DNA of 64,000 bases, from positions 5,988,914-6,052,913 of the forward strand of contig NC_134034.1 of the NCBI RefSeq assembly GCF_964204645.1, written 5' to 3'. Every line of letters begins with the position of its first letter. Position 1 is the stretch's first letter. Under the pieces are notes generated by a model that was given only the letters and a program-made list of their open reading frames with translations, did no database searches and was not told the origin of the DNA. The position numbers and the translations under genes are program-made. The stretch is from Tubulanus polymorphus. Its lineage: Eukaryota; Animalia; Nemertea. Positions 11,711 through 45,227 of the stretch are shown here, piece after piece.

Positions 11711-11726
11711 TTTTTTAGTTATATAA

Positions 11727-13115: not shown

Positions 13116-13131
13116 TTTTTTTATTATATAA

Positions 13132-14545: not shown

Positions 14546-14586
14546 AAAATAATAAAAAATGAATAATTAATTTTTTTGTTAAATAA

Positions 14587-15829: not shown

Positions 15830-15859
15830 AAATATAAAGTTAAAATTAAGGATATATAA

Positions 15860-16987
15860 ATGGGTGGTAAAAAAACTCCTAATACTAAAGAACAATATTT
15901 AAGAAATTTATATTACAACCCTGAGAGTTCGGTTGCTTATTCTTCTACCAAAAATATATGGAGTAAAGTAAAACAAGATAAATTAGATAAGATAATCCCA
16001 CAAAATTTAGTTAAATATAAAGATATAAATGAATTTATGTTAGAACAACCAACATATACAACACATAAAAAAATTATTAGAAAATATAAAACTCGTAAAA
16101 CTATGGTAAGTTATATAGATCAACAGTGGCAAGGAGATTTAATTGATATGAAAAATGTTAAGAAAGATAATGATGATTATTGGTGGTTATTGAATATAAT
16201 TGATATTTTTAGTCGTTATGTATGGAGTTTCCCACTTTATAGAAAAGATGCTGTACAAACATCAAATGTTTTAAGAAAATTTCTTTCGGATGATAAACTA
16301 AAACCAGAAAAAATACAATTTGATGATGGAAAAGAATTTGATAATTCACTTGTTCATGAACTCTTAGATAATCATAATATTAAATATTTTTCAACAAAAT
16401 CGGATAAAAAAGCAGCAGTTGTTGAACGATTTAATAGAACATTAAGAACAAGTGTGTGGAAATATTTTACAGCAAATAATACTTTTAAATGGATTGATGT
16501 TTTACCAAAATTGATAGAAGGATATAATAATTCTTATCATTCTTCTATTGGAATGAAACCTATCGATGCTAGAAAACCTGAAAATGCTGAAATTGTTTGG
16601 AATAATTTATATGGAGCATTTCTTGTAGATGATTTTGGTGAACCTATATTTAAAGTTGGTCAAAATGTTAGAATTTCTAAGTATAAAAAGATATTTGACA
16701 AAGGATACGATCGAAATTTTACTAGGGAAATATATAAAATAAAAAAGGTAATAACAACAAAACCATATGTCTATAAATTAGAAGATTTAGATGGTGAAGA
16801 AGTTGATGGCTACTTTTACGAAGAAGAATTAAGTTTAACTACTGAAAATCTAGAACAAGAATATAAAATTGAAAAAGTATTAAAAACAAAAACTATTAAA
16901 AGAAAAAAATATTCTTTAGTAAAATGGGTTGGATGGCCAGATAAATTTAATGAATGGATATTATCAAGTAAAATTAAAAATATATAA
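15860..16987 (+). CDS. Retroviral-like (rve) DDE integrase with C-terminal chromodomain
   Basis: QWQGDLIDM, IDIFSRY, QFDDGKEF, VERFNRTL, YNNSYHSSIGMKP; chromo YKIEKVL...LVKWVGWPDKFNEWI; intact ORF. Confidence 0.95.
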   Translation: MGGKKTPNTKEQYLRNLYYNPESSVAYSSTKNIWSKVKQDKLDKIIPQNLVKYKDINEFMLEQPTYTTHKKIIRKYKTRKTMVSYIDQQWQGDLIDMKNVKKDNDDYWWLLNIIDIFSRYVWSFPLYRKDAVQTSNVLRKFLSDDKLKPEKIQFDDGKEFDNSLVHELLDNHNIKYFSTKSDKKAAVVERFNRTLRTSVWKYFTANNTFKWIDVLPKLIEGYNNSYHSSIGMKPIDARKPENAEIVWNNLYGAFLVDDFGEPIFKVGQNVRISKYKKIFDKGYDRNFTREIYKIKKVITTKPYVYKLEDLDGEEVDGYFYEEELSLTTENLEQEYKIEKVLKTKTIKRKKYSLVKWVGWPDKFNEWILSSKIKNI

Positions 16988-17596
16988 ATGAATAAAGAAT
17001 TATTTATATTTGAGCCTCATAATATGTTAATTTCTGGCGTAACAAATTGTGGAAAAACTTATTTTATATTAAATTTATTAGAAACTGTTTATGAAAACTA
17101 TTTTGATAATATAGTATTATTTTGTCCAACATATGAATTTAATCAAACTTATGATAGAAATATTACTAAAAATAATAAATTTATTATATTAGATCCTAAA
17201 ACAGTAAAAGAAAATTTAGATATTTGTATAAAAATAGCAATTGATATTTATAAAGGATCAAATACATTATTTATCATAGATGATTGCGCAAATTTACATG
17301 ATTCAAAAGTTAGAGAAAGTGAGTTATGCTATTTAGCTTTTTCTGGTAGACATTTTGGGATAACAACTTGGGTTTTAAATCAAAAATATAATTCAATTGT
17401 TAAAGACTTTAGGGAGAATATAAGATTTCTAGTTTTATTCTACAATCAAGATAGAAAATCGATGAAAAATGCACTTGAGGAAAATGATATTATTCCACAT
17501 GATTTACATAATGAATATATGGATAAGTTGAAAAATATTAAAAGATCAAAATTACTGTTTAGATTACAACACCCATTTAAATATGAATTTATTTAA
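16988..17596 (+). CDS. A32/FtsK-like genome packaging ATPase
   Basis: Walker A GVTNCGKT, Walker B FIIDD, GRH and Q..R.N motifs; intact. Confidence 0.92.
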   Translation: MNKELFIFEPHNMLISGVTNCGKTYFILNLLETVYENYFDNIVLFCPTYEFNQTYDRNITKNNKFIILDPKTVKENLDICIKIAIDIYKGSNTLFIIDDCANLHDSKVRESELCYLAFSGRHFGITTWVLNQKYNSIVKDFRENIRFLVLFYNQDRKSMKNALEENDIIPHDLHNEYMDKLKNIKRSKLLFRLQHPFKYEFI

Positions 17597-17599
17597 ATT

Positions 17600-17868
17600 C
17601 AACTAGCTTGTTAATCTAGTTGAATTCTAGTTACATTCTAGTTGAATTCTAGTTATTGGTATTGGAACAAAAATCAACTAGATTTAACAATATTTTAACT
17701 AGCTTGTTAATCTAGTTTAATTCTAGTTACATTCTAGTTGAATTCTAGTTGTTAGTAGTTGGAACAAAAATCAACTAGATTTAACAAGAAATAAACAAAA
17801 ACAACAATATTTCAACTAGCTTGTTAATCTAGTTGAATTCTAGTTACATTCTAGTTGAATTCTAGTTG
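17600..17868. repeat. Three ~55-bp units of CTAG/GAATTC-rich non-coding repeat
   Basis: aactagcttgttaatctagttgaattctagttacattctagttgaattctagtt at ~17602, ~17697, ~17814. Confidence 0.85.
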
Positions 17869-17900
17869 CAACAACACAATTAATTTTTTTTGTTATATAA

Positions 17901-18488
17901 ATGGGAGGTGAAAAGAAAATAAAATCTAAAAATGGTGATGTTCCAATTGAAAAAACTTTAGATGATTTAGGAATAACAGAAAACAAATTAATTCCAGATG
18001 ATGGTGCTTTAAATAATGTTACAACAAATAATAATTATGAATATTATCTTTATTGTAAACATCAATTAGAAATATTAATAGCATCTGGAAAATGTAAAAA
18101 TTTTGTCGGTAAAAATTTAACTTATAATGAACTAGATTCAATGAAATCAGATGAAATTATTAGATTATTTAAGATTTATGAAGCCGCGAGAACAGCTAGA
18201 ATTAATGACGCGATATCAGAAAATGTAGTAAAAGGTTATAGTAAATTATGTAATTATACACTACCAATTGATGATGAAAATAGATTATATTCCGATTTAA
18301 AAAATGACTATTTAGTTATGACTGAATTAAATAAATGGATTGGATATTCATCATTTCAATTAGGCGGATTTATGACATTATTATCAACTGGGGTTATAAC
18401 ATTTTCAAATATTGAAAGTAAAAATATTTCTATAATAAATGAGCGAGGTGAAAGAAGTGAAGGAATTAACTGTGAAGAAAAAACCTAG
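17901..18488 (+). CDS. Conserved hypothetical Polinton protein (gene X)
   Basis: 195 aa; homolog at 41853-42455 in P2. Confidence 0.8.
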   Translation: MGGEKKIKSKNGDVPIEKTLDDLGITENKLIPDDGALNNVTTNNNYEYYLYCKHQLEILIASGKCKNFVGKNLTYNELDSMKSDEIIRLFKIYEAARTARINDAISENVVKGYSKLCNYTLPIDDENRLYSDLKNDYLVMTELNKWIGYSSFQLGGFMTLLSTGVITFSNIESKNISIINERGERSEGINCEEKT

Positions 18489-18773
18489 ATCACAGAAACA
18501 AATTGAATGGTCTCGGCAATTAGGAATTAAATCACAAGAATATAAAAAGCTGTAAAAGAAAAAATAAGTAATAAAAATGTTAATAAAAATAGTGAAAATA
18601 TTGTTATTTCTACTCCTTCTAATGATAGAATATTTGATAAATGTCTATATTTTACAGTTGGATTTGTAATTGTATTCATTTTGATTGGGTGTAATTGGTA
18701 TAAGAAATCAAATAAAATTCATGATATTAATAATTCTGAAACAACTGCTATCAAAAATGAAAATAATTCTTAA
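18439..18773 (+). pseudogene. Small basic protein with TM segment (gene Y), frameshifted
   Basis: TAAATG start; KKPRSQKQIEWSRQLG matches KKARSEKQIKWARELG in P2 (41860, minus). Confidence 0.6.
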
Positions 18774-18996
18774 ATTCCAAAATTGACAATAAAAAAATGG
18801 ATTAATATTTTAGAAAAAAAGGCAAAAAAAATAATTTTTTTTAATCAATTGAATATTAATTGAATATCTCACTACTTTTGTCTATCACTGTGTGGGTGCC
18901 GTTTATGGCACCATCTACGCGGAGCAATTAAATTGTCCAGATAAGTCATTTCGGATTCTAGATATTCATTATTTTTATTAATTTATTTTTTTAAAT

Positions 18997-19326
18997 TTAA
19001 TCAACAATTTCTAAATCATGATGTCCATCTTCATTTTTTCCATGATATAATATTATTTTAAATCCTTCTAAATCTTTTAATTCCTCTGTCCTCAATGAAA
19101 CCCATTTATCAGGTAAAAATACTTTAAATTCTCGCGATGTACTAACCTTACAGTAGCTTAAATTAGCTGATACTTTCTCTCCATATTTAGTTTTTATCTT
19201 TTCTAATTTCAATATTTTATGTTCAATTTCTTTTGTAACATCAACTAACTTTTTTATTTCAAATTGTTTTTTTGCTGGTTTTATTCTGTTATTTATTGTT
19301 GCTAAGAATGCTTTTCTATCTCCCAT
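18997..19326 (-). CDS. Small protein, possibly OB-fold ssDNA-binding
   Basis: KKL..., TKYGEKV, FKVFLPDK pattern shared with 57602-57943; fold is inference. Confidence 0.55.
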   Translation of the reverse strand: MGDRKAFLATINNRIKPAKKQFEIKKLVDVTKEIEHKILKLEKIKTKYGEKVSANLSYCKVSTSREFKVFLPDKWVSLRTEELKDLEGFKIILYHGKNEDGHHDLEIVD

Positions 19327-19348
19327 TTATTAGGAAAAAGAATTACTC

Positions 19349-19949
19349 GTGGTGATGAGCGGGGATTACTTCCCCTTGTATATAACAAACACCCTATTAA
19401 CCGTTGTCACCCAAGCCTCACAGCATCTATTTATCCGGGTACAGTTAACACACGCGCAGCTGTTGTTACGCGCACTCACTGTTTATGTGTGTCACAATTT
19501 TACTGCGTAATATTTCTAAAATTTCAATTGTATCTTTTATTTCTAGTGAATCAATATAATTTCTAACATTTTCCATGTAAGGTTTATTTGATTTATCAAT
19601 GTATTTTTTACAATATGGACAATGATATTGATTTTCATTAACATCAATTTGTTCTGTCTTATTCTCTTCCATTTATACGGAAACAAAATTATTTGTGGTG
19701 ATGAGTGGGGATTACTTCCCCTTGTATATAACAAGCACGCTATTAACCGTTCTCACCAAAGCCTCACAGCATCTATTTATCTGGGTACAGTTGACACGCA
19801 ATCACTGTACTACAGTAATAGCACACGCGTTAATAACCGTTCTCAGTAGAGACTCACTGTATCGGTCTATCCACGCGCAGCTGTTGTTACGCGCACTCAC
19901 TGTATATGTGTGTCACAGAGCAATCGTCCGTTCTCACTAGAGCCTAGCT
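19349..19949. repeat. Subterminal direct repeats enclosing a deleted inverted copy of the polB 5' end (ORF 19466-19672)
   Basis: ~19349-19497 repeats ~19695-19917; the ORF matches the P1 PolB N-terminus. Confidence 0.8.
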
Positions 19950-20009
19950 GTGATGAGTGGTGTCTCGCCCTCTCGCCCTCTGGTATGAAACCCACATCTT
20001 CCAATTACT
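19950..20009 (-). repeat. P1 right terminal inverted repeat
   Basis: Reverse complement of 2899-2958, followed by TSD TTTATT. Confidence 0.95.
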
Positions 20010-20334
20010 TTTATTTAATTTCAATTGTTCTAATTCTTCATTTGCTTCAGATAATTCTTTTTCTACAGTGATACTTTTAGAAAATCTCATCTTAATATGA
20101 GCAAATTCAAGTTTCAGTATTATCTAAAACACTAATTATCTCTTCTTCTAAATCGGCTATTTTTTCAATTTGTTTTTCTTATACTAATTGTCATTCACTT
20201 GAATCACTACTTATTTATTGAATAACTTATTTCGATGTTTTTGGTTTTGAAGATCTTAATTCATCTTATTTATCTGCAAACTCTTCCATTTCTGGATCAA
20301 CAAAAGTAGGATTTAGATTTGGATTTTTAAATGG
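20010..20334 (-). pseudogene. Old Polinton fragment P0, part 2: middle of coiled-coil gene
   Basis: Joins 2898 across the TSD to give EELEQLKLNKDLQVIDE, matching P2 EELKQLELNKNLQVIEE. Confidence 0.85.
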
Positions 20335-21147
<813 letters not shown>

Positions 21148-21469: not shown

Positions 21470-24400
21470 AGAATGGGAAACGTGCTCCCTACTCCAGTAA
21501 ATAAATCGAGATTAAATTATCGTAACAAACTGAACTCATGTACACTATTACTACAACATGTCGACAGCCCCCGGACTTATACCAAAGGCCGGAAAAGCTA
21601 ACCGCAAGGTCCCTAGTCGCCCGAGCCGGGAACGAAGGGAACTTGAGACGGCTCAACGGAAGGGCCGGACATGAGCCAGCGCTTCTCTTGAGCGAGGAGC
21701 ATGGGGCCCAACGCAGTCAAAGAACCCAACTCCCCCGACACATCACATAAGTAGAAGGACGCAAAGGTAGACGGGGAGGACCAAAAAGCTGCCCTACAAA
21801 CCTGGTCTAAAGAACCACCAGAGAAAACCGCCCACGAAGTGGCCATTGACCGAACCTGGTGAGACACTACTCTCGCGGAATCGGGCACCCCTTCTGGGTT
21901 GAGCGCCTCCTTGATGAGCAAGACTATCCAGCGGGCCACCTTGGCCCTGGAAATATCAGACTCCGACTTCTCCGAAAGGGGGAGAAAAAGTCTTTCTCTG
22001 GACTTACACCTGGGCTCGGTGCGGGACAGGAACATCCTCAAAGCCCTGACTTGGCACCAGGCCGAGTCCTGCAAGTCAACGGAAACTCCCTAACTCAGCG
22101 CCTCAATTCTCCACTCCCTGCCCGCAGAGGATGGCTTCTGGTTTTTCGCCGGGATCGACAATCCCGGGCGAGGCAAAACAAACTGGTCAAGGGGGCCAAA
22201 AACAATATGACCCGCCCGAGCCGACAAGGCATGAAGCTCCGACCTGCGCGCCGCCAAACACAGTAAAAACACGGTCTTCTTTGTCAGACGTGAAAACGAC
22301 AGAGAAGCTAAAGGCTCGTACGGAGCCGAAGTCAGATCCTTCAAAACGACCGTCAAATCCCATGGGAGAAGATCCTGGATCACCCTCGGACGAGAAATGG
22401 AAAATCACGCAATCAGCTGTGAAATACGAGGATCTGCCATGACTGACGGAAGGCACGCCGAGTGATGGGTATGGGAGATCGCCGACCCATAGCCTTTCAC
22501 TGTACAGACTTTAAAACCTTTATCCTTGAATAGAAAAAGGAAAAAATCGGCTACATCTGCTACAGAGGGTGAGTGAGGATCCACCTGTCTCTCACGGCAC
22601 CAATTACTGAAGAGTTCCCACTTGGAGTCGTTAACGAGACCTGTCGAGGGTCGTGTCGAAGCGACGATAGATGAGGCAACGTTTGCCGAAAAACCTTCAC
22701 TCTGGAGACTACGCTGGACAGCGGCCACGCGTGAAGTTTGAACCAATGAACAGAACTTACCTGTCCAACAGAACTTACCTGTACCGACCAAAAACTAGCG
22801 GAACGCTGTGTTCCACTGGTCAAGCCGAGAACTGCCGATTTGAGTTTCTCTATTCGGCTGTCCGCCGGCCGGACGATCCCTCGAACGAGATCGAAAAACA
22901 TTCCGAGATAAAGGAATTTCTCCGATGGGGCAAGCTGGGACTTTTCCCCATTTACGAGGAAACCTAATTCCCGATTCGGGGAACGAGATCGACATTCTCC
23001 CTCCGAATTGCCTACCACCAACCAATCGTCTAGGTATACAAAAAGACGAATACCTTTCCTTTGTAGCCTTTTCTGGACCCCCTTTACGACCTTGGTACAT
23101 ACCCAAGTGGCTGCACTCAGGCCGAAGGGGAGCGACGTGAACTGATAGTGGATGCCTTTCCACTTTACGCGGAGATACCGATGAGACTTCGGATGCACCG
23201 GCACTTGAAAATAAGTGTATTTCATTCGATAGAAGCAGCCCATTGCCTGGGTTTCATGCCTTGAATGACTTCTTTGGGGGTCATCATTTTGAATTTTGGG
23301 CAGTCGAGAAACTTGTTTAGGAAAGAGAGAGGTCTTATCACCGTCCGAAGACCGCCGGATGCCTTGGAACGGTGAAGATCCTGGAATACCAACCCCAAGA
23401 GGGATGATCCCGAACGCGACGCAGGGCTCCTTTATCGATTGGCTCCTGGATCGCCGGGATAATGTGCTGCTCCTGACCTTTCTTGGGTCGCATGTCCGGA
23501 GGGGACCTTCCCCAGGGAGGTTTCTTGCGAAACTGAAACCGGTTCCCGGCCGAGACGGTTCGTGTCAGCCAGGTATCGCCAATGAGCTCGTACCAGCGGA
23601 AAGCACAGCTTCTTAGGCATGCTCCCACTGGTACGGAGCCTTCATTGCGTTTGATTAGTCTGCCTCCGAAAGGGATTGACCTTTTTTGGACCTTTACCCT
23701 TAGCAGAGAACTTCCTGCCCGACTTCTGATTCGAAATTAAGGCATTAGAACCATTCGCAGACCAGCCGGCCTGCCGATACTGGGCCGAGCGGTTAGCACC
23801 GTCCTGTACTGCAACCAAAGCTGATTTCCCGGACGAAGACGCCGTAGGCTTGGCCGCGTCCTTTTTCTTAGGAATAAGCCATGGGGCCGTCTTATGCTGC
23901 GAATCCTTCAGCCTTTGAGCTTGTTGAGCTGTCGGCCAACACCAACCCGAAAACAAACGACTTGACAGCCCCAACAGGGCCCTATACAAGTTTTGTTTAA
24001 TCGCATCTGAGAGTTTGGCATCTTTTAACAAGAAGTGCCGAGCTATCAGGGCCAGATTAGCCTGTAACCTGAATGCCACTGGCACTTGATGGCAAATCGC
24101 TCTTGCTGATGACTGTAGGAGTCTGTCAATCGTAGTGACCCATCCGAAACCATATCCAAATCTGGCGCCGACGAAGCCAATAGGGATTTTATCGCGACCA
24201 GTTCCCCGTGCATCGCGAACAGAGCAATGTCTTGAAGGAACCGATTTGGCAAATGCTTTCGCTTAAGGACTGCATAGCCTCCATTGCCTGTTTAGGCGTG
24301 GCATACGTGCTAGGTTGAGCCGTGAAAATGCCCAACGTACCCAAATCCCACATCGGCATCGGCATCGATAGCCGTGGTTGGCTTAAATGACGAACCTGGA

Positions 24401-29098: not shown

Positions 29099-29134
29099 TA
29101 ACCGAATCCACCGAATCTGGCGACAGTCGTAGGC

Positions 29135-29613
29135 AGTAATAGGCGTAATGGGCTTTCAAGCCAAAGGTCGAACGGTCGAGTGAGTAAAAAATGAAAAACA
29201 TGAAAATAATTACAATTTCTACTTGAATTACTCGCGAAACTCATAAAAATGAAAAATAAATTCTCACACGCTCTAATTTATTTTTCATTTTTATGAGTTT
29301 CACTCCTAATTCAAGTAGAAATTGTAATTATTTTCATGTTTTTCATTTTTTACTCACTCGCCCCTTCAACCTTTAACCTGAAAGCCTATTATCCCTATTA
29401 CTCTTAAAATAATCATATACGTGAATAACATTCAAATTGACAGATTATTCAATATCAAAGTGTAAGCTCTTATAGAATAAATATAAAAGTATATATTTAC
29501 AACATTATTTCAATATTCATATTTGTATGAGTTAGATTTTAAACATTAAAAGTGTTAGTAAAGTGTGATTGAAATAATACATGATATAAATCATTGAACT
29601 TCTAAAATCAATT
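29135..29613 (+). repeat. P2 left TIR containing a 268-bp imperfect palindrome (29135-29402)
   Basis: Inverted match to ~44772-45227; internal arms fold back around a loop at ~29262-29275. Confidence 0.93.
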
Positions 29614-29636
29614 TTAATAAAAAATTTAGTATTAAA

Positions 29637-32600
29637 ATGGAAGCAAATAAGTACTACTGTCCAACATGTAATATCAATATAGATAAATCCCAAAAAGCAA
29701 GGCACAATAAAACTAAAACACATTTAGAGAATAAATTGAAACTAGAATATAAAGATGATATATTAGAATCTAAATTAGATGAATTAAAGAATGAAAAAGA
29801 AATATATAAATGTGATACATGTAATCAATCATTCAGTGATAAAAGATATTATAATAAACATTTAAAATCTAAAAGTCATATTAGAAATAAGAATAATGAT
29901 ATTTTAGGTGAAGATTATTTTGATTAAGATAATGATAAGAAACAGAAGACAATTAAAAGCATAAAAAGTAAATTAAACAATAAAAGACCATACATGGAAG
30001 ATGTAAGAAATTATATTAATTCATTAGATAATAAAAAAGATATAGAGATAACCGAAGCATTTAAAAGTGATATTGGCCCAGCAGCTATCGAGTTTAAATT
30101 TCATGAAGGAAAAACATTAGAAGAAAATAAAAAACATTTAGAAAATATGAAAAATATTATAAAAATAATTACTGATGTTGATTACCCTAAAATTAGTATA
30201 TCTTCTAAAGTTAAATTCATAAAATCTGAAGATAAACCAATATATAATATAAATTCTCATTCACAACATATTATATCTAAACAACATATAGATGATGAAT
30301 TAGATAAATGTTATAATGAAGTAAAAACTAAAATAGAAGAGAAATATTTTGAAGGATCTGGTTTAATATTTGATGAAATAATATTTATGACTTTACATGT
30401 GTATAACACAAAATATAATAAGTTAACTAAATCAAAACAAATAGATGAAAATAATGTATCATATTATAAAGAACAAGATATTGAAGCATCGAGTTATATT
30501 AAACTACCATTTAAAACTAATGCTGTAATAAATGTACAAAATGAAGATGATAAATGTTTTCTATGGGCTATAACAAGTTGTTTACACCCAGTTGAAGATT
30601 ATAAACAACATAGTTTTAGATTAACTCATCATAAACCATTTGAAAATAGTTATAAGATAGATAAGTATCCTGTTAGAATTAAAAACGTCCCAAAGATAGA
30701 AAGAGATAATAATTTAAGAATAAATGTATTTGATTTAATCAAATTACCAAATACAAAAGGTAACAATATAAAACATTATACATTAGAACCTTTATATCTA
30801 TCAAAAGATTATGATTCAAACGATGTTATAGATATATCATATTATGAGAATCATTATATGTGGATTAAACAAATAGATTTATTTTTTAAATCAGAAAATG
30901 ATCACCATAAAATATATCTATGTAGAAAATGTTTACATAAATTCAGTAATGAAAGTACATTATTAAATCATAAACAATTATGTGAAAATCATGATAATTG
31001 TAAATTAGTTTTACCAAATGAAAAGGATAAAATATTAGAATTCAAAAAATATGATTACAAAAATAAAGTTCCATTTGTAATATATGGAGATTTTGAATCA
31101 TTAAATAAAGAATTAACTGATCAAGATAGAAAAGAAATATATTATAAAAGATAGAAATTAAATTCTAATGAAAATGATTTTTCAGATGAACCACCAAAAA
31201 CAAATACAATTAAAAAGATTCATCAATCAGCTGCAGCTTTCGGGTTATATATTAAATCTGATTATCCAGAACTAATTAAAAGTGAATATTATCATTATAG
31301 AAATGAAAATGTTATCAATCATTTTTGTGACTTATTAATTGAATATGAAATAAGATTTAGTAAATTATTGAATACAAATATAGAAATTATAATGACAGAA
31401 GAAGATAAAGAAAAATTTGCGTTTGCAGATAAATGTTATTATTGTGAAAAGATATTTAATTATAAAGATAAAAAGTAAGAGACCATGATCATTTGAATGG
31501 AAAGTTTAGAGGCGCTGCACATAAGAATTGTAACTTACAAGCTAAGAAAATTAATTTTGTACCAGTTATATTTCATAATCTATCAGGATATGATGCACAT
31601 TTATTCATCAAACAGTTATGCCATAAAATAGAAGAAATTAATAATGAAATAGAAAGATTAAATTCAAATAGATCAAAAGATAAAATACCAACTTATAAAT
31701 TTAGAATGTTAGCTAAAACATCTGAGAATTATATATCATTCCAATTTAGTTGCCTAAGATTTATAGATTCATATAGATTTTTAAATAGTTCATTAGATAA
31801 CTTATCAAAATCATTAGTTGATGATGAATTAAAAATATTAAAACAACACTATGCAAATAATGATGATTTGCAATTAATGAGATATAAAGGAGCAATTCCA
31901 TATTCATTTTATAAATCACATAATGATTTTAATATAACTGAATCAAAAAATGAATATGTTAAAGATGAAGTATATAATAGAACATTGAATATTTGGAATC
32001 ATTTCAAAATAACAAATCATGGACAATTAGTAGATTTATATTTAAAATCAGATGTATTATTATTATCGGATATATTCGAAAGGTTTAGAGATGTAAACCT
32101 AAAATATTTTAACATTGATCCTTGTCATTGTTATTCATCACCAGGTTTAACATGGGATTGTGGATTAAAATTTACAGATATAAAAATGGATTTGTTAACA
32201 AATATAGATCAATTATCATTATTTGAAAAATCTATAAGAGGAGGAGTTTCAGGTGTATTAGGTGATAGATATTTCAATGTAAATGATAAACCTGGTTATT
32301 ATAAAAGTTATTATATATAGATGCAAATAATTTGTATGGTTGGGTAATGATGGAACCACAACCTTATCGAGTATTTGAAATAAGTGAAGTTTTACAGAAT
32401 GAAAATAATGATAAATTTGATTGGAAGAAAAGAATTCTAGATATTGCAGATGATTCAGATACTGGTTACTTCTTTGTTGTAGATTTAGAATATCCTGAAC
32501 ATATTAAATTTAAATCTAGAAATCTAGCATACTGTCCCGAACATAAAACTGTAACTCATGAAGAATTATCAAATTACCAAAAAAGAATTAAACCCGAAAA

Positions 32601-33653
32601 TCATATTCATACAGAAAAGTTAATGGTAACTCAAGAAGATAAATATAATTATGTAGTACATTACAGAATGTTAAAGTTTTATTTGAGTCAAGGAATGATT
32701 CTAAAAAAAGTACATAGATATATTTCATTTAGTCAATCTAAGTGGTTAGAAAAATATATAGATTTTAACACCAAACAGAGAAATGAAGCTAAAACCGATT
32801 TTAAGAAAGATTTCTTCAAGTTAATGAACAATGCATTCTATGGTAACACTTGTGAAAATATTAGAAATAGAAATGATATTGAGTTAGTTAGTAATGGTAA
32901 AAGAATTAGACATTTACAAACATATCCTAAGTTCATTGGTAACAGAATATTTGATGAAAATTTAGCCGCAGTTAAGATGAGAAGAACATCAATGAAATTT
33001 AATAAACCAATCTATGTTGGCGCTTCAGTTTTAGAATTATCAAAATTACTAATGTATGAATTCTATTATAATGTATTACAACCACTTTTTCGAGAAAAAC
33101 ATATAGAAATATTATATTTTGATACTGACAGTTACATATTAAAGATAAAAACTGATAACATAACTGATGATTTAAAAACATTAAAACATCATTTTGATTT
33201 CAGTAATTATCCTAAAGATCATGAATTGTTTAGCAATGATAATAAAAAAGTTCCCGGTAAATTCAAAGATGAATTAGGTGGTGAAGAAATGATTGAATTC
33301 ATCGGTATTAGATCTAAAATGTCTTCATATAAAACTAGAGAACATGAAGCTAAAAAGTTAAAAGGAATAACCAAAAGTGTAGTAGAAAAGAATATTCATT
33401 TCAAAGATTACATCAATTGTATATTCAATGAAGAAGTTAGAAAACATAAGATGAGATGTTTAAGATCTGAAGATCATGAAATGTTTATTGAAGAAATTGA
33501 AAAATAAGTCTAAACCCATTTGATGATAAAAGATATATTTTAGATGATGGAATTCATACAGTTGCTTATGGTTGTAATTCAGATGAATATTTAAAATTTA
33601 AAAGAGAAGAAACAAAAGAGAACGAGATAATGAAAAGAATTCTAACGTGTTAA
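29637..33653 (+). pseudogene. polB: Protein-primed PolB, intein-free, disrupted
   Basis: Same motifs as P1; ILYFDTDSY uninterrupted at ~33110-33135; several stops and frameshifts. Confidence 0.95.
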
Positions 33654-33682
33654 TCAAATTTTAATAAAAATATGTTATTAAA

Positions 33683-34035
33683 ATGGAGAGTAAACAAGCG
33701 GAAGTGAGAACAACAAATCATTTCTAGATAGAATAAAAGATACTTCAAATATCAAATCAGTAGATTAAAAATTCAAAAAGTTAACAGAATTAACAATTCA
33801 TAAGAAATATTTAATTACAAATATTGAAACAATTACTAACAAATATGGAGATAAATTAGTTATACACTTAGAATATGAAGGATTAAAAGGAAATACATAT
33901 AAATTCAGAACATATTTACCAGATAGATTTCATAGATTATCAAGTGAAGATTTAGAAGAATTATGTTCTGGAGATTTCTATTTCGTAAACAAAGGTTAGA
34001 ATGAAAAAGGGCACCATGAAATAGATTTCGAATAA
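33683..34035 (+). pseudogene. Small putative ssDNA-binding protein, with stops
   Basis: Near-identical to 57602-57955. Confidence 0.6.
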
Positions 34036-34052
34036 GAAAATATGTAAAATAA

Positions 34053-34808
34053 ATGGTGGAATTAAAAGAATACAGAATATTTGTTGATTCAAGAAAACTT
34101 ACAAATTATAAATCTCATAATTTACTAGTACAATTAGATAGAGAATTTAAGAATTGTGTAGATTTAAAATTAGTAAATATAAGTTTATGTAATTCTTTTT
34201 ATAATATATCGGATAAAACTTTTGAACATAGAGGGTTTATGATTTATATGAGAAATAAAGGTAAATGGTTTCATATATTTTTAAAACCAGGATTATATAA
34301 TTTAGAATCATTAGCGCAGGAAATTAATAGAAGAGCTCGGTTGAAAATCGGGGGCACTTCTGTATTTGAAATTAAATTTAATAAAATTGATAGTACTAAT
34401 AAAATTAGAATAAAGATATCTAATGAACAACATAAATTCATGGTAAACAAACCACTGGCTAAAATGTTAGGAATTAAACCGCTTACAGTTACTGGAAACG
34501 CAGAAGGCAGCTCAAATATAATACCTTTTACACAATTTTATATTTATTGCAATTTAATCGAGCCTACAAAAACTTTCGAAGCAACTAAAAAAACAATTTG
34601 TAGTTCTAGTATACTAAATATTTTACCGCTAAAAAATGTTAAACAATTTGGAACTCAAATAAATTATAATTTAACAGAATGTGATTTCAAACCATGCATT
34701 CCTAAATTTAATAATTTTAAATTAGAAATAAGAAATCATAATGGATATTTAATTGATTTGAATAACTTTCCTGTGATATATGAATTAGTTATAAGATGTA
34801 GAGAGTAA
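34053..34808 (+). CDS. Minor capsid (penton) protein
   Basis: Intact 251-aa ORF with the motifs listed for P1. Confidence 0.8.
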   Translation: MVELKEYRIFVDSRKLTNYKSHNLLVQLDREFKNCVDLKLVNISLCNSFYNISDKTFEHRGFMIYMRNKGKWFHIFLKPGLYNLESLAQEINRRARLKIGGTSVFEIKFNKIDSTNKIRIKISNEQHKFMVNKPLAKMLGIKPLTVTGNAEGSSNIIPFTQFYIYCNLIEPTKTFEATKKTICSSSILNILPLKNVKQFGTQINYNLTECDFKPCIPKFNNFKLEIRNHNGYLIDLNNFPVIYELVIRCRE

Positions 34809-34825
34809 TTTTTTCACTATATAAA

Positions 34826-36311
34826 TTAATATTACTGTTGGGCCGAGCATATGTTTTGGATTTGATTTTAAACGTGAGAAAGAAAATAAAATTTAACGTT
34901 AATGATGTAATTACACATATAAAAAATATTGCATTTTCTAATGAAACAACATTTGAGTATGAAACAACAATAAATAAAGAAACTTTAAATGTAGAAAAGA
35001 TTACTAATTTAATTAGAGAATCTTTAAGATTTTATGAATTAGATGAAGATTTTATTATAGATGATATTAAAAAAATAATAATTGAAATATATGATAATCA
35101 TAAAAGTAGTAATGAAATAAATGTTGAATTAATCATAAATAAGTTAACGAAATATTTTGATGATAGTAATTTTTTTGATAAATATATGAGTGATAATAAG
35201 TGGATAATAACTGGATTATATAATGGCGCATTACTATCAGTTGGAACTGTTGGTTATTCAATGGTATTAAAAAAAGTATTTAAAATGGGAAGTGTTAATG
35301 TTGATAGATTTGATATAAATGATATTTTAAAATTAACATTAGCAGTTACTTTATCTAATTTAACTATTGATTATTTGGAAAAACAAAAATATATAAGTCT
35401 CCCATATAAATGCATAATTATTTTACTAAATAAATGGCTTCTGCAGTTATAACTATTATAGGATCGGCAATTGTTAACGCTTTAGCATTTACTGGTGGTG
35501 GTTATTTATTCAAGCATATTGATAAAAATGGTTCATTAACAGAACAAAAAAGACATAACTTAGCATTAGAGAAATACAATAAAGCAGTGGAAGAATATAG
35601 AGAAAAGAGGCAAAACTATATGGATTACATCAATAAAGAATTATATGATCAGAAGATTTCACATAGAGATTTTCAATCAGTTGATGATGCAATGAGTTTA
35701 TATAACGCGGTAACCAATAAAGAAAAATTACATCTATACAAACCAAAATTATCAGATTATTATACCCCAAGTAATGAACAGAAGAAATATGAAATAATTT
35801 GGATTTTAGGTGGAACTGTTATTGTTATATTTGTAGCATATAAGTTTACTAATTAGTAATTTTTTTTCTAAATAAATGGAAGATAAAGTTGATAATATTG
35901 ATATTATTCCTCATGATATAAATAAAACTAAATTAAAAATATATTTAGAAAAACAAATATTAGAATTTGAAAGTGACTTAAAGATAAAAAAAGAAAAAAT
36001 ATTTAAAAAGTAAAATTATATATTATTTGATTATAAGTGGTTCGGTTACAATAAGTTCTGTAATAACATTTCTAGCAATATTCAGTCCATTAACACCTTT
36101 AGCTATATCAATTGGTGTATTATGATTAAGTTCAAGTGTTTTAACTGGTATAAGTTCAAAATTCAATATAAAAAGTAATTAAGAAAAAATTAAAACTAAT
36201 ATGAAAGAAATAAATAAATTAAAGAATACACTAGATTATATAATTAGTTTAAATGGTCATATAACAGTTAAAGAACAAGATAAATTATTAAAAGAATTAA
36301 TAAATTATTAA
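34826..36311 (+). other. P2 cassette of four small genes (acidic protein and three membrane proteins); 35434-35856 intact, most others damaged
   Basis: Colinear with P1 10228-11710. Confidence 0.8.
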
Positions 36312-36327
36312 TTTTTTAGTTATATAA

Positions 36328-37653
36328 ATGGCAGATAGTTTTCCAAAAGCTTTCCAATATAATAAATCAATTAAATATAATATTCCAGCAATAGATTTTA
36401 ATAAAGATATTTCATATAGAAATGAAGTTTTAAATTCATTAATTGATTTAGAAATTTATGTTACTGAAACTAATAATTTTAATGCAAAGATGGAAAATAT
36501 ATTTCATGTATATTTAATTAATTTTAAAAAATTGAAAGATGAAAAACAATGTTTATTAAAATCTAATATGAAGTATTGGCAGAACCAATTAAATTTTGCT
36601 GTTTATTGTGCAACAACAGGATGTGGAATTAGTTGGAATGATCATTTAAACAAATCAAGTTTACCATTGATGTTATCACTTTTTAGATTTCATACATATT
36701 TTCAAATAAAATTAATATTAGATGAATTAGAATGTCCTTTACCAGGTTCAAAATATTTTAAAGAATTGAATAATAATATTAATTTTTCTAAGTTTTATAA
36801 AATATGTAATGAATTTAATATTAATTAAAATAAAGATTTTAGAGCAAAAATTGGAACAATGGGTGGATTAGGAATATTATATACTAAAGAATTTGGAAAA
36901 ATAATGACAAATTCAGATGTAAGAACACTAAATTGGAAGGAATTACCAAAATATTATGATAATATACAACAACAAAATAATAATGGTTGGGTTAATTTCA
37001 TTTTAGAAAATAGTGAAGGTTTTACTAAAGCTGGAATACAAAGAATAAATCAATCTATTAGAACTTATTTGATATGTATTTTAGGTGCGCAAGTTGAAAC
37101 AAGATCCCCAATAATTGGAAATGATAACACTTCATTCGATGCGCAGAAACAATTCAAAGTATTATTTGAAGATTCAATTCATAATGATAAAAATAGATCG
37201 ATTCCAGAAAACATTGTAAGATATCAAAATTATTTAGATAAATCACATATTAGATTAAATTATTGTATAGGCCCTAATCTATTTATTATTTCTAATGATT
37301 TAGTATTAAAGATGGGAAATATAATTGGTTATAATAATCTAATTAAAACTGCAACAATAAATAATTCATTTGGATTAAATGATATAAATAAAAAGATTAT
37401 TACTGCTCCAAAATTAATGGAAGGTGAAAAAAATAAAAAACATATTCAATCAACAGAAACTAAAACTAAGAATATTAAATTAAATAATGATTCTAAAATA
37501 AAAGATTACAATACATCAGAAGATATAAAAACTGATAATATTCAACATGAAATAATTAAACTAAATGATGATAATAAATCCCATGAAAATACTAAATTAG
37601 CTATAACTTGTATAGGAATTGTAATCGGAGGAATATTATATTTTAGATTTTAA
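36328..37653 (+). pseudogene. Conserved NQLNFAV-motif protein with TM anchor, one stop
   Basis: Homolog of P1 11727-13115. Confidence 0.78.
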
Positions 37654-37669
37654 TTTTTTTATTATGTAA

Positions 37670-39388
37670 ATGGCAGAAGGTGGAGAAGATATTGGAATTG
37701 ATACTTTTGGTGACGCTCCCGGTATAAGTGATGAACAACCACCTAATTTTGATGAAACAAGTTTCAGTAATGATAATAAAACGGCATATAATACTAATTT
37801 AGGTGAAGATGATGATTATGATGATGATTATGATGGAATTAATTCCGAATTACGTGAAAAATTAATTAAATATTTAAAAGCTCCTGAAAGTGGTAGAATT
37901 TCAACTAGAACACAAAGAAAAGAATTTATGAAACTATTAGAAAAACAACAAGAAAAATATCCTGATAAACCTATGGAATTATATAGAATGAAATCTAGAG
38001 TAACAGATACAATTGTAAACGAATTATTACCAAAAGTTGTAATAGATGAAATTGATTCAGAAGGTGTTGTAGAACAAATTTATAAAGATGACCCATTTTT
38101 CATCAATAATTTAGAATTTAAAAATGATTCATGGTATTATAATCTTGAATTAAATAGGAATATTGTAACAATTCAATTATCTAAAATGGGTCAAGAAAAT
38201 ATTTTTGAACCTGGAATGCGAGCATTATCTACAATTGAAGGTTCAAAAGGTGGTAGAGAATTTCTCAGAATTATATGGAATGCACTCGACAGAATAAATA
38301 AAGAAGAACCAATTCCTAATATTGATATAAACAAATATTCACCATTTAAAAATCCAAATCCAAATCCTACTGATGTTGATCCAGAAACTGATGAAGATTT
38401 TGCAAATCGATTAGGTAAATTAAGAACTTCAACACCAGAAACATCGAGAAGAGACACTCAACCAATTGATAATGATTCAAGTCAATTACAATTAACATTA
38501 GAAAAACAAATTGATAGATTAAGAGATTCAGAAGAAGAGATGAATAGTATATCAGATACATCTGGTGCTGAAACTGGAATAAATCAAATACAATCTTTAC
38601 TAGAAAAAGGATTACTTGATTTAACTGATGAAGAATTAAAACAATTTCCTGAAAAAGCACGTAGAGAAATTAAAGGTGTACAGATATCAGCTGGTGAAAT
38701 TGCTAATATTAAGATGAGATTTTCTAAAATAACCATGTTAGAAAAAGAATTAGCTAATGCAAATGAAGAATTAAAACAATTAGAATTAAATAAAAATCTT
38801 CAAGTAATAGAGGAAGCTGATTATGAAAGCAGAAAGTTAGCTTTAGAAAAAGAAATAGATGATTTAAAATATAACAAAGAATTACAGGAAAAAGAAAGAG
38901 ATACATTATTAAAATCATATGATCTTAATCATATTAAAAAATTAAAAGTTGTTGTTAAAGATTTGTTGATAAAACCAAATTCTAAAATATCATTGAAAGA
39001 TAGAATAAAATTATAATTTAAGTTAGAAGGTATAACAATTCTTTCAATTCTAACAGCTGTAACTATGTTATTTACAACAATTGGTTTAGCAATATCAAAT
39101 GCTTTAAAATCTACTCCTACTCCCAATAAATCAGATAAGCCCCCAGGTAATAATTCTATACAAGATAAAGTTAAAGATGGTTTAAAAAAATTAGCAAAAT
39201 ATTTATGGGAACTATCTAAAAAATCTGCTGCAGCATTGCCAGGAGTTATTGCATCAATTGTTGGTTTTATATTGAAATCTGCTGGGAATATTATTAACTT
39301 TGCTGCTGAACATATTATTTTATTTTTAATTACAGTTGTAAGTGCTATTATTTTTGGGTTAGTAAATATGATATCAAAAAATAAATAA
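37670..39388 (+). pseudogene. Large coiled-coil/membrane protein, one stop at ~39016
   Basis: N- and C-termini shared with P1/P3, central part unrelated. Confidence 0.78.
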
Positions 39389-39409
39389 TTAATTTTTTTT
39401 GTTAAATAA

Positions 39410-40657
39410 ATGAGTGGGAGTTATATAAGATCTTCTAAGATTTCTAGAATATCTAATGCTATTAAAGCAGAAAGATCACATCATATAATTACTCATAACC
39501 CTTCTAATATTAATCCCGATGAAACTTTATATGTTAGAATTCCGAGATTAACACAAAATACTTTTTATGTTCCAAATAGTATTTATTTATCAGCCGATAT
39601 AAAAGTAATCGGTAATAATAATAATTATGTTGTTGATAATGTTGGAAGATATTTGATTAAAAAATTAACTATAAAGATTGGTCCAGAAACAGTTTTCTCA
39701 TTAGATGATTATAATTTATTCATGCATTATAAAGATTTATGGTTAACTAAAGAAAATAGAAATAATATGATATTTCAAGGAATCCAATCAGAAAACCAAA
39801 ATAAATTAAGATCAGAAGCTAATAGCGCAATATTAACTAATTCTGTAGATAAATTGATAAAAAGTATATATGGAAGCAAATATAAAATTCCATTAGACTT
39901 TGAATTGATAAATAACAATGCACCTTTATATAAATACGCAATTCAAGAAGACGTTATATTCGAAATAACATTTGCTCCTGTTAATGAAATTGTAATATCT
40001 AGCGTTAATAAAGATATGAGTTATAAATTATCGAATATATGTTTAGAATATGACACAGTTACTGATGAAAATATTTCAAGTATAATTCAAACTCAATACA
40101 ATCAAGGATTTTCATTATTATATGATTATATTGATAAATCTAAAACTGTAACTATTAATGCAAATGATGAAATAATTAATGAGAATATTAACTTCCCAAG
40201 AAGATCTATTAAAAGTATATTAATATTTTTTACCATTGCAACATATACTAATGGCGCAATAAATGTTGATAATTATTATAATCCTGAAATAACAAAAGTA
40301 GAAATAACTATCGAAGGAATAGCAAATAAAATATTTTGTCAAGGAATGAGAATGATTGATCAATGGCCAGAAATTAGAAAACATTTTATGAATGAAAAAG
40401 TAAAATCATCTGAAAATTGTAATATTAATTAAATTGATTATAATACCGGTAATAAATATGCATTATGGTTAGATTTTGGAACAACAGAGGATAATTCATT
40501 ACATGGTTCTGGAAAAAAATTACAGAACACTAAAGATGGAATACAATTATTCATGACAAAGAATTAAGGAATCAAAAATTTCAAAATGCACATTTATATT
40601 ATATCTGACGCGCAATTAAATATTGTAAATTCTCAATTAAATAGTGTTATGTATTAA
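39410..40657 (+). pseudogene. Major capsid protein, premature stop at 40432
   Basis: Homolog of P1 14587-15829. Confidence 0.82.
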
Positions 40658-40689
40658 AATTTTAACTTTAATAAAAATTTATATAATAA

Positions 40690-41199
40690 ATGGAAGGAGG
40701 TGAAGTATATAAACATATTCCATACATCGATACACATGAAAATAATGATGGTTTATATTATGTAATACCTTGTAATATAGCTTTGATATTTGATCCTATT
40801 TTCAAAATTTATAAAACTAAACTAATAGAAATCGATAATAATAAAAGTGAAGTTGTTGATAATTTAAGTAATGTAATTGATAATAATGTAATACCTTCTA
40901 CATCTAATAATGTAATACCTTCTACATCTAATAATGTAATACCTTCTACATCTAATAATGTAATACCTTCTACATCTAATAATGTAATACCTTCTACATC
41001 AAATAATGTATTACCTTCTACATCTAATAATGCAATAATATTAAATGTTAGTGAAAATAGAAATTATTGTGATTATTGTAAAGGTGAATTTTCAAACGCT
41101 CCATCAAATTGGAATAATCATATGAATACAAATTCACATATTACTAATGTTATAAAACGTGTTGGTTTAAGAGAATTTATAGAACACCCATTTAGATAA
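40690..41199 (+). CDS. Zinc-finger protein with NNVIPSTS octapeptide repeats
   Basis: 24-bp tandem repeat, ~6 copies at 40882-41030; YCDYC..WNNHMNTNSH finger. Confidence 0.7.
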   Translation: MEGGEVYKHIPYIDTHENNDGLYYVIPCNIALIFDPIFKIYKTKLIEIDNNKSEVVDNLSNVIDNNVIPSTSNNVIPSTSNNVIPSTSNNVIPSTSNNVIPSTSNNVLPSTSNNAIILNVSENRNYCDYCKGEFSNAPSNWNNHMNTNSHITNVIKRVGLREFIEHPFR

Positions 41200-41486
41200 G
41201 TTCTTCATGTCAATTAAATCAGCTTGCCATTGTTGATCGATATATGAAACCATAACTTTTCTTGTTAAATAAGTTTTATCCATTTTTTGTGGATTTGATA
41301 TGTTGGTTGATTTTGTAACCATAATCTTAGTTCACTATATTTTATATCACCATATGGGTGCCGTACGGCACCATTACCATTTTCATTATCAGATTTAATT
41401 TTATTCCATAATTCTGAAACGTTAGAATATGATACTTCACTTTCTGGGTTATAATATAAATCTCTTAAATATTGTTCTTTTTTCAT
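41200..41486 (-). pseudogene. Truncated integrase N-terminus
   Basis: EQYLRDLYYNPES...QPTYQIHKK, then after a frameshift RKVMVSYIDQQWQADLIDMK; homology ends ~41200. Confidence 0.88.
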
Positions 41487-41493
41487 CTTATTT

Positions 41494-41860
41494 TAATCCA
41501 TTAATAATAATTTAGATTTAGTTTCAATGGCTTTATGATTTGACTTATTTTCTGGTATAATAGGTTTATTGTCATTGGAATCATATTTATCATCAGATTT
41601 GAATTTGATTTATATATTACACCGGATAATATAATAACTGTTACTAATCCAATTGTAATATATAATTTATAATTACTTCCAGCATTAGAAGAATCAGATG
41701 GATTATCATTCGAATCAATATCAGATAAAGTCTGTGATTCATTTATATCAGTTAATTTCTTTTTCTTAGCTTTTTTTAATTCTGAAGATCTTTAACCTAA
41801 TTCTCTTGCCCATTTAATTTGTTTCTCGGATCTAGCCTTTTTCTTAACTCCATCACTCAT
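41494..41860 (-). pseudogene. Gene Y homolog (basic N-terminus plus TM)
   Basis: Matches P1 18439-18773. Confidence 0.6.
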
Positions 41861-42455
41861 TTATTTTAGTTAGTTTTTGTTCTGATTCATTTTCTGTTTC
41901 GCTGTTTGGTTGTAGTACATCTGTTTCGTTCTTACCTGATTTACATTCCATAGGCTTGATATTCGAAAATGTTATGACGCCAGTAGAAATTAATGTCATA
42001 ACCGATCCTAATTGAAATGAAGCATATCCAACCCATTTTTGTAATTCAGTCCTAACTAAGTAGTCATGTTTCAAATCACTATATAATTTATTTTCATCAT
42101 CAATTGGTATTAACTGGTTACATAACTTAGAATAACATTTGACAATACCATCTGAAATAGAATCATTTATTCGGGCTAATCTTGCCTCTTCATAAATCTT
42201 AAAATATTTTATTACTTTATCTGGTTTCATAGCATCTAATTCTTGAAAAGTAATATTCTTAGTTAAAAACTCTTTAGTTTTTCCACCGGCAATCAATAGT
42301 TCTAGATGATGCTTACAATATAAATAGTATTCATAATCTGTATTACAATTAACTTGAGCACAATTAGTTACAACTGTATCTTTATTATCACTTATACCCA
42401 AATCATCTAATGTTTTTTCAATATCAATACTATTTTTATTAGATTTCTTAGACAT
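41853..42455 (-). CDS. Gene X homolog
   Basis: IEKTLDDLGI, YEYYLYCKH.LE.LIA shared with 17901-18488. Confidence 0.8.
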   Translation of the reverse strand: MSKKSNKNSIDIEKTLDDLGISDNKDTVVTNCAQVNCNTDYEYYLYCKHHLELLIAGGKTKEFLTKNITFQELDAMKPDKVIKYFKIYEEARLARINDSISDGIVKCYSKLCNQLIPIDDENKLYSDLKHDYLVRTELQKWVGYASFQLGSVMTLISTGVITFSNIKPMECKSGKNETDVLQPNSETENESEQKLTKINE

Positions 42456-42864
42456 TTATATTAGAGAAAAAAAGCAAAAAAATATTATAAGTATTCTTCA
42501 AATGATACTAGCTAGTTAAAGCTAAAGAATTCTAGTATTGACTACTGATACTAGCTATTTGAATTTAAAGAATTTCTATTTGAATCTATTCAAAATATAA
42601 AGTATTCTCTTTTTGAAAAGAAAATATTAAAAATATAATAGAATTCACTAGCTAGTTGAAGTTATTGTTTTTTTTATTATATTTTATTTAAATTCTATTT
42701 GATATCTCACTACTATTGTTTATCTATTAGGAGCAGTAATTATAACTGTCCAGATAAGTCATTTCGGACCCTTGATATCAAATTCCTCAAACTGAAAATA
42801 AATTCAAAGAAACGACTGGTGGAATTACTATTTCATAAACACATATATTTATTATACAAATTTT

Positions 42865-43220
42865 AGCGATCGATAATAGAACAATGGAGAACAATAGAAA
42901 AGCGGTTCAATCGGACTGGTTATTGCGCAATACACAGTTATATTTTTATTCTGTAAACTACAACATTCAAACATAGAAATGTAACCAATCAATATTGAGC
43001 AGCTGTTTCCGTCAACAACGATCAATAATAGAACAATGGAGAACAATAGAAATGCGGTCCAATCGGACCGGTTATTGCGCAATACACAGTTAACAGTAAA
43101 CAATCAATACAGAACAACCGCCGCCATTAACAACGATCAATAAAAGAACAATGGAGAACAATAGAAATGCGGTCCAATCGGACCGGTTATTGCGCAATAC
43201 TTAGTTAACAGTAAACAATA
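42865..43220. repeat. Three imperfect direct repeats with palindromic cores
   Basis: gaacaatggagaacaatagaaatgcggtccaatcggaccggttattgcgcaatac at ~42880, ~43030, ~43146. Confidence 0.85.
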
Positions 43221-44750: not shown

Positions 44751-44771
44751 TTATTATACATATTTTTTCCT

Positions 44772-45227
44772 AAATTGATTTTAGAAGTTCAATGATTTAT
44801 ATCATGTATTATTTCAATCACACTTTACTAACTCACACAAATATGAATATTGAAATAATGTTGTAAATATATACTTTTATATCTATTCTATAAGAGCTTA
44901 AACTTTTATATTGAATAATCTGTCAATTTAAATGTTATTCATGTATATGATTATTTTAAGAGTAATAGGGGTAATGGGCTTTCAGGTTAAAGGGTGAAGG
45001 GGCGAGTGAGTAAAAAATGAAAAACATGAAAATAATTACAATTTCTACTTGAATTAGGAGTGAAACTCATAAAAATGAAAAATAAATTCGAGCGTGTGAG
45101 AATTTATTTTTCATTTTTATGAGTTTCGCGAGTAATTCAAGTAGAAATTGTAATTATTTTCATGTTTTTCATTTTTACGAGCTCGACCGTTCGACCTTTG
45201 GCTTGAAAGCCCATTACCCCTATTACT
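44772..45227 (-). repeat. P2 right TIR with palindrome 44961-45227
   Basis: Reverse complement of the left TIR. Confidence 0.93.

Follow-up and report, generated by a model that had tools for sequence, protein, structure and literature searches.

Polintons, or Mavericks, with a pPolB2-type polymerase have been described by Jeong et al. (10.1101/2023.08.22.554363) and, in the available part of their text, by Krupovic et al. (PMC11071308). The words "hairpin" and "palindrome" are absent from the main texts of Jeong et al., of Starrett et al. (PMC8502044) and of a coral survey (10.1101/2023.10.06.561300); subscription papers, Repbase entries and supplements may describe such ends. The closest report, as given in the accessible portion of the preprint, concerns palindromes at the ends of Halocafeteria virophages and of PLV subtype 4, for which hairpin priming was proposed (10.64898/2026.07.28.741278). 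At the Streptomyces telomere, according to the sections available of PMC5449611, the 3' end folds back to serve as template for mending the tip, and the fold is then opened so that protein priming can take place. For Polintons, the literature searched held no direct test of the copying model in which the TIRs pair end to end before protein priming. Here we analysed 64 kb of the nemertean Tubulanus polymorphus (the window, meaning the whole stretch) and describe long fold-back ends on its Polintons, a genuine structure that is shared across the family and sits on an otherwise ordinary Polinton backbone.

Three Polintons in the window

The window is eukaryotic DNA of ~35% GC, in which three AT-rich elements of 20-26% GC are embedded:

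2899-20009: P1, with the TSD TTTATT on both sides
29135-45227: P2, 16,093 bp (16.1 kb), with the 6-bp TSD GTAGGC
from 53301, running beyond the window end: P3

All three are Polintons (virus-like DNA transposons), as judged from a pPolB in each of them, an rve integrase and an A32 ATPase in P1, the EndoVII-like domain, and a capsid relative in P2. The size of P2 and its TIR of ~500 bp at 91% lie within the Polinton ranges (13-25 kb; TIRs of 100-1500 bp), as do the TSDs of P1 and P2 (5-8 bp). The genes are broken in all three copies, and our Pfam search covered 39 ORFs of the window, which do not include every frame. In P1 it returned the rve integrase (PF00665, E 2.8e-10) and the A32-type packaging ATPase (PF04665, E 1.1e-12). 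For the ATPase, no matching counterpart was seen in P2; of the integrase, P2 keeps a 280-bp remnant only (68% identity), and that of P3 would lie outside the window. An adenovirus-like maturation protease had no Pfam match among the 39 ORFs scanned, with some frames unscanned and the copies broken. Two further genes of P2 are:

39410-40432, + strand: major capsid protein gene (piece), double jelly-roll by way of its close relative P0002
44094-44750, - strand: ORF adjoining the right TIR; its HNH-like motif is weak (HNH_4 at E 0.13, short of the cut-off)

The capsid ORF is 75% identical to P0002, whose model matches iridovirus, PBCV-1 and mavirus capsids (E 3e-15 for iridovirus/PBCV-1). The P2 TIR stops at a start codon on both sides, that of the polymerase gene at 29637 on the left and that of the HNH-like ORF at 44750 on the right, and therefore probably drives both genes. 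As to the surroundings, the Polintons are nested: P1 sits inside an inverted fragment of another family copy (2064-2898 and 20010-20936), beyond which come a capsid-gene fragment in forward orientation and an (AT)n run of 172 bp, and reverse-transcriptase fragments lie between the Polintons (22560-23243 and 50729-51778).

Palindromic ends and their paired arms

The ends of P2 and the left end of P3 are built as follows:

29129-29134, + strand: P2 left TSD GTAGGC, the identical 6 bases recurring at 45228-45233
29135-29645, + strand: P2 left TIR, ~500 bp, up to the polymerase start codon, 91% to 44742-45228 inverted
29135-29262, + strand: outer arm of the P2 left palindrome, beginning with a 46-bp end motif
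29263-29274, + strand: 12-nt loop of the P2 left palindrome
29275-29402, - strand: inner arm of the P2 left palindrome, with a complete inverted copy of the end motif
44961-45089, + strand: inner arm of the P2 right palindrome
45090-45099, + strand: 10-nt loop of the P2 right palindrome
45100-45227, - strand: outer arm of the P2 right palindrome, the same arm type being outermost as at the left end
45228-45233, + strand: P2 right TSD GTAGGC
53301-53452, + strand: P3 left palindrome, 152 bp, arms 53301-53371 and 53382-53452, 10-nt loop

An earlier note on this DNA had taken the first 268 bp of P2, their mirror at 44961-45227 and the first 152 bp of P3 for imperfect palindromes ending in an inverted AGTAAT, and had proposed folding them; both the arms and the folds bear it out. 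The P2 left arms measure 128 nt each and are 90% complementary (268 bp overall with the loop), the right palindrome spans 267 bp with its arms in the same order, and each of the three palindromes terminates in ATTACT, the inverted AGTAAT tip. As DNA, the P2 left end folds at -100.5 kcal/mol (z -23.5) and the P3 palindrome at -55.8 kcal/mol (z -14.8), with 0/200 shuffles equally good in either case, and in the P2 and P3 folds the tip of the hairpin pairs up to its last base. When the 64-kb window was scanned for long hairpins, these three ends were the only ones returned besides an (AT)n run. The 46-bp end motif consists of the AGTAAT tip, TTTCA and two GG[GT][CT]GA boxes at positions 32 and 40. 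It occurs eight times in the window, at both P1 ends and in both arms of the three hairpins, and shuffled sequence gives none. Each hairpin thus runs from the end motif through an AT-rich stem and a GC-rich loop to a second full motif facing the opposite way. The letters specific to the inner arm of the P2 left end are found at positions 25, 27, 28, 35, 39, 42 and 97-101. The idea that this arm is a dead origin found no support, both boxes being kept in register. Separately, a 3-base switch in the outer arm (29181-29183 and 45179-45181) yields a small palindrome, CGAGCTCG, at the right end of P2, and this form prevails in the reads (887/1269 at 29181).

Direct alignment of the three hairpin ends of the window confirmed that the arms change together between P2 and P3. 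Six of the 51 outermost pairs (positions 13, 14, 17, 18, 19 and 26) changed on both sides, a count reached in 2/500 shuffles, which for three related ends is not a probability. Thirty of the other pairs are invariant and two changed in a single arm, while 13 lack pairing in one end or more. Position 25 shows the same base substituted in both arms of P3, and a 58-nt block present in both P2 arms is gone from both P3 arms. The persistence of arm-specific mismatches, also claimed before, is equally plain: positions 27, 35 and 42 are unpaired in all three ends, and position 26 was altered in both arms with the neighbouring 27 still mismatched in P2 and P3. These mismatches are mostly G-T or purine-purine when read on the strand bearing the 3' end, and A-C or pyrimidine-pyrimidine on the opposite one. 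In folding energy the 3'-end strand has the advantage, by 10.4, 12.4 and 6.2 kcal/mol at the three ends. This bias was matched by 11, 4 and 16 of 200 random flip controls, for ends that share ancestry. Counted by position, the bias stands at 16 against 3 with 2 neutral, and grouped into events at ~10 against 3 (sign test ~0.09, not significant). We take this as a hint, suggestive only, that selection for folding acts on the 3'-end strand.

To look beyond the window, we used raw reads filed under the same species label by another study (run X4, of which ~12% was read); runs X1-X3 may be what the window itself derives from, and we do not treat them as independent evidence. In X4 the depth rises from ~45 on the flank, which may itself be repeat, to ~2,400 at the tip, and 2057 reads pass the tip into mixed flanks with the left end as reference; the sample therefore contains many insertions of the family. 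An assembly artefact was rejected, as raw reads cover both arms and the loop with many flanks. The co-variation seen between P2 and P3 extends across the family. Of the 15 joints listed, two are deletions centred exactly on the axis (29236->29301, 112 reads; 29197->29340, 15 reads), in which a single molecule has lost length from both of its arms; at the right end, the joint 45062->45127 has 99 reads. At position 77, 970/1201 outer-arm and 830/1084 inner-arm reads depart from P2, so that most hairpins carry both changes. At the right end, three positions vary in both arms: 11 (503/1472 and 857/2739 reads), 16 (512/1431 and 1195/2815) and 26 (299/1421 and 1317/3257), although such shares are no proof that the changes sit in the same molecule. 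A third stem type is indicated by loose ends at mirrored positions (29180, 1035 reads; 29356, 386 reads), which look complementary by eye. In all, stem lengths of 268, about 206, 152 and about 142 bp occur.

Further observations in these reads concern the variety of copies. Deletion joints just inside the hairpin (29411-29597) mark subfamilies with shorter TIRs, like P3. A strand-switch joint near the loop (45070-45080; 47 reads, 35 start places) could be a real variant or a library fold-back artefact. P2's own letters are nearly absent from X4 (2407/2409 reads differ at 29144 and 1484/1503 at 44994), and the P2 insertion may therefore be missing from that sample.

The search for flip/flop isomers, which the earlier note had advised, turned up a single dominant orientation. 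The same arm is outermost in 3/3 window ends. With the right end as reference, the outer arm takes 2307 host-junction reads; the inner boundary ranks outside the six largest loose ends (<323). Position 35, which defines the arms, is absent in either arm from the 40 variants listed, the lowest share listed being ~20%. Flop ends would thus lie below ~20%, against the 50% of AAV-type resolution, as read from that table, whose ranking rule is unstated. No 50:50 flip/flop was seen in the window ends or the X4 reads, which represent integrated copies only. Flop isomers or solo hairpins had been suggested by 358 mixed-flank reads at the inner boundary under the left reference. We mostly rejected them: under the right reference the inner count drops below 323 and the outer one rises from 2057 to 2307, so that we read most of them as misplaced ordinary outer ends, although a minority class may exist. 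Coverage is, however, lower across the inner boundary (about 1,500-1,770 reads) than at the tip (about 2,300-2,800), which tells against a clean picture of orientation. Taken together, the data support a maintained fold-back end whose arms are homogenised within the molecule over many copies, with a few lasting mismatches. To this extent the proposal of a selected or repeatedly regenerated fold-back end stands; as to its cause, selection and an accident maintained by conversion both remain candidates.

Proposed priming at a folded end

The polymerase was examined for signs that the hairpin replaces protein priming, and the following features were placed:

29637-33507, + strand: protein-primed PolB gene region of P2, in five reading-frame pieces
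30042-30407, + strand: predicted terminal-protein domain of P2, with EGSG loop and candidate linking Ser; 92% identical stretch to the modelled P3 piece
53937-54302, + strand: predicted terminal-protein domain of P3, beta-alpha-beta-beta-alpha-EGSG-beta, AlphaFold block with pLDDT 71-94
55320-55439, + strand: EndoVII/HNH-like nuclease insert of the P3 polymerase (PF02945, E 2.3e-5, 24.6 bits against a cut-off of 23.6)

A protein-primed family B polymerase is present in P1, P2 and P3 (PF03175, E 4e-15 to 2e-8), and in P2 its domains run from zinc fingers through the terminal-protein domain and vOTU to an exonuclease with the EndoVII-like insert and the palm. An AlphaFold model of 442 P3 residues (mean pLDDT 80) has a beta-alpha-beta-beta-alpha-loop-beta order plus one extra strand, the layout given for Polinton terminal proteins in the available text of PMC11071308. 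Against the PDB it matches Y-family polymerases best, over ~120 columns and at E about 0.01-0.05 (lowest 0.009, none <0.001); these hits include a little-finger-only chain, and a likeness of Polinton terminal proteins to Y-family polymerases is described in the same part of that paper (PMC11071308). In the alignment, the linking position of the EGSG loop is Ser in 28/30 and Thr in 2/30 rows, the Cys and His of the vOTU dyad are invariant, and P1 shares the terminal-protein and vOTU motifs of P2 and P3. The nuclease insert, with its Cys pairs and DHDH motif, scores above the PF02945 cut-off in P3 and below it in P1; a PDB sequence search with it gave no match (best E 1.1). No Rep/HUH family (Rep/NS1 nickase-helicase) was found among the 39 ORFs scanned against Pfam. 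The ends had earlier been thought unexpected for purely protein-primed replication. This was not supported: the hairpin-ended elements P2 and P3 keep the predicted terminal-protein domain, the linking Ser and the vOTU Cys/His, from which we predict that protein priming is kept and that the hairpin is an addition to it. For palindromic ends of protein-capped DNA, moreover, there is a precedent in the Streptomyces telomere (PMC5449611, in the part available).

P1 serves as the comparison element that has no hairpin:

2899-2958, + strand: P1 left TIR, 60 bp, carrying the 46-bp end motif and no hairpin
19950-20009, - strand: P1 right TIR, 60 bp, the element having TSD TTTATT on both sides

The earlier description of a 60-bp TIR with no hairpin is right in that the 60 bp are perfect and the P1 ends show no fold-back (folds of -13 to -24 kcal/mol). 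It falls short in that the inverted match continues in interrupted pieces (left 50-196 at 79%, 454-546 at 91%), by which the TIR was probably once longer. The right end of P1 (19319-19950) holds pieces of the left end, some duplicated (133 bp at 89%, 46 bp at 98%) and some inverted, and by its sequence it is a rearranged longer TIR. Since P1 has the same domain set and end motif, the fold is dispensable in the wider family. P1 is also a mosaic, its polymerase region (3220-6530) being 73-75% identical to P2/P3 and its structural block (9419-15863) 87-92% identical, and across P1, P2 and P3 the end type goes with the polymerase type. The P1 polymerase has an insert (5066-7237) that matches an intein weakly (PF14890 at E 2e-4, under the cut-off) and is absent from P2 and P3.

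Our preferred reading, tentative and with a probability of roughly 0.45, is that the palindrome acts as a local panhandle, which restores and repairs the origin for protein priming and does not replace it. Strand-displacement copying or excision would free a single strand. Its 3' end could then pair with the inner arm, independently of the other end, which lies 16 kb off. This fold would make the end motif double-stranded again and give the predicted terminal protein its site for priming. If protein-primed copying began at the tip and continued across outer arm, loop and inner arm, the orientation would be kept without a nuclease step. The paired arms would template each other's repair, giving mirrored substitutions and indels, and G-T and purine-purine pairs, if tolerated on the 3'-end strand, would be the mismatches that last. 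For this reading speak the palindrome itself, the co-change of its arms, the single dominant orientation, the full 46-bp motif in both arms, the predicted terminal protein, the better fold of the 3'-end strand and the Streptomyces precedent; against it stand hairpin-less P1, the weakness of the strand bias after grouping into events, and the yield of 0 element ends from 83 loci of relatives outside this host. Its weak point lies in the folded 3' end, which forms a primer-template junction. Polymerases of the protein-primed family can extend DNA primers, so something must block self-priming.

Conversion alone, without any function, can give co-varying arms. The end might thus be a neutral fold-back, born of a single template switch of the polymerase onto the displaced strand, its symmetry kept by conversion or cruciform-driven repair and its mismatches lasting by descent or by making the palindrome stable in the chromosome. 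P1 manages without a hairpin, stem length and sequence vary so widely that little sequence constraint can rest on the stem, and accidental annealing is the alternative that the Halocafeteria preprint itself offers in its accessible portion (10.64898/2026.07.28.741278). We nevertheless regard a structure with no role as less likely. Random conversion tracts poorly explain how position 26 changed in both arms next to a still mismatched 27. Long palindromes are usually unstable, and here the hairpin has been kept across subfamilies with replaced stems; the mismatches also lean to one strand.

Slightly less probable still is self-priming by the folded 3' end as in parvoviruses, with asymmetric resolution and with protein priming at open ends only. 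The EndoVII-like polymerase domain would then nick at the lasting mismatches or at a dimer-junction cruciform. The geometry does supply a ready primer, paired to its last base, and the polymerase has the EndoVII-like domain with its Cys pairs and DHDH motif. The MVM dimer junction is resolved asymmetrically around a mismatch bubble (PMC1185569, in the part available), and the same model was proposed for the protist virophage and PLV palindromes in the text accessible of 10.64898/2026.07.28.741278. The strand-switch joint of 47 reads would also fit, but it is possibly the library artefact mentioned above. The lack of 50:50 flip/flop means that resolution would need asymmetry, and the lack of a Rep/HUH family among the scanned ORFs, the same nuclease insert in hairpin-less P1 and an intact predicted terminal protein all weigh against this account. 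A hybrid replicon, in which a protein-primed Polinton also primes from its folded 3' end and the EndoVII-like nuclease cuts at the fixed G-T mismatches, seems to us quite improbable. If true, a single element would combine parvovirus-type hairpin priming with protein priming, and the HNH/VSR inserts of pPolB2 polymerases, which lack an explanation, would gain a function. Least probable is a function in some step besides copying, such as protection of the ends, packaging, docking of the integrase or a hairpin RNA. In vaccinia, mismatches in the hairpins are important for assembling virions but not for synthesising DNA (PMC8956199, in the sections available), and the family encodes a capsid, with A32 ATPase and rve integrase in P1. 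Integration, however, occurs at the outer tip with a clean 6-bp TSD, hairpin or not, and an Rfam search gave 0/9 hits at gathering score, with sub-threshold matches to long miRNA stems only.

Comparison with known systems

Beyond this host, the end-motif patterns had 0 matches in IMG/VR, protein-led scans of IMG/VR gave 0 loci, and the end motif was seen in 0/83 loci of relatives (80 metagenome and 3 genome loci). Seven of these 83 loci contain long hairpins; the three that were examined (L029, L068 and L076) are not element tips. L076, a capsid-bearing contig, opens with tandem repeats folded about a short TTAGGG run (1-210). Capsid-gene relatives also turned up in three contigs of prokaryotic MAGs (L081, L082 and L083), which are probably misbinned eukaryotic or viral DNA.

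Among hairpin-ended replicons, the parvoviruses (MVM left end, AAV ITR) have hairpins of similar size that pair to the last base, and the MVM left end likewise has a lasting mismatch bubble and one orientation. Unlike parvoviruses, this is a double-stranded integrating element with a protein-primed polymerase; the terminal hairpin pairing to the 3' end is present, and neither an HUH Rep/NS1 (in the ORFs scanned) nor flip/flop isomers (in window ends and reads) were found. With poxvirus telomeres, as described in the available sections of PMC8956199, the ends share an AT-rich imperfect hairpin with kept mismatches. Poxvirus ends, however, are closed loops in flip and flop forms, whereas the palindrome here is open, integrated and of one dominant orientation (PMC8956199). 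The terminal-protein-capped telomeres of Streptomyces resemble it, by analogy only, in having a palindromic 3' end on protein-primed linear DNA; in the part of PMC5449611 available they differ by several short palindromes, Tap/Tpg and internal origins, where here one long stem goes with a fused pPolB and an integrase.

The Halocafeteria virophages and PLV subtype 4 come nearest in placing palindromes within TIRs beside the TSD of integrated capsid-encoding elements (10.64898/2026.07.28.741278, accessible portion). Their palindromes measure 52 nt in the subtype drawn there and go mostly with non-pPolB replicases; those described here are 3-5 times longer and combine an intact predicted terminal protein with arm co-variation and fixed mismatches. 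Contrary to what that text suggests for protist elements, end palindromes are therefore not restricted to elements that lack pPolB. The ends also define a short DNA substrate with a candidate linking Ser and a candidate nuclease, and P1 provides a hairpin-less control with a related polymerase from the same genome; local fold-back, self-priming and end-to-end pairing thereby become separable in vitro.

In most respects, the elements resemble pPolB2 Polintons: a size of 13-25 kb, TIRs, a 6-bp TSD, a pPolB with terminal protein and vOTU, the HNH/VSR-type nuclease insert (PF02945 above cut-off in P3), an rve integrase, a packaging ATPase and a double jelly-roll capsid. What sets them apart from the pPolB2 Polintons described is the TIR, which here opens with a 150-270-bp palindrome holding a second, inward-facing full end motif.
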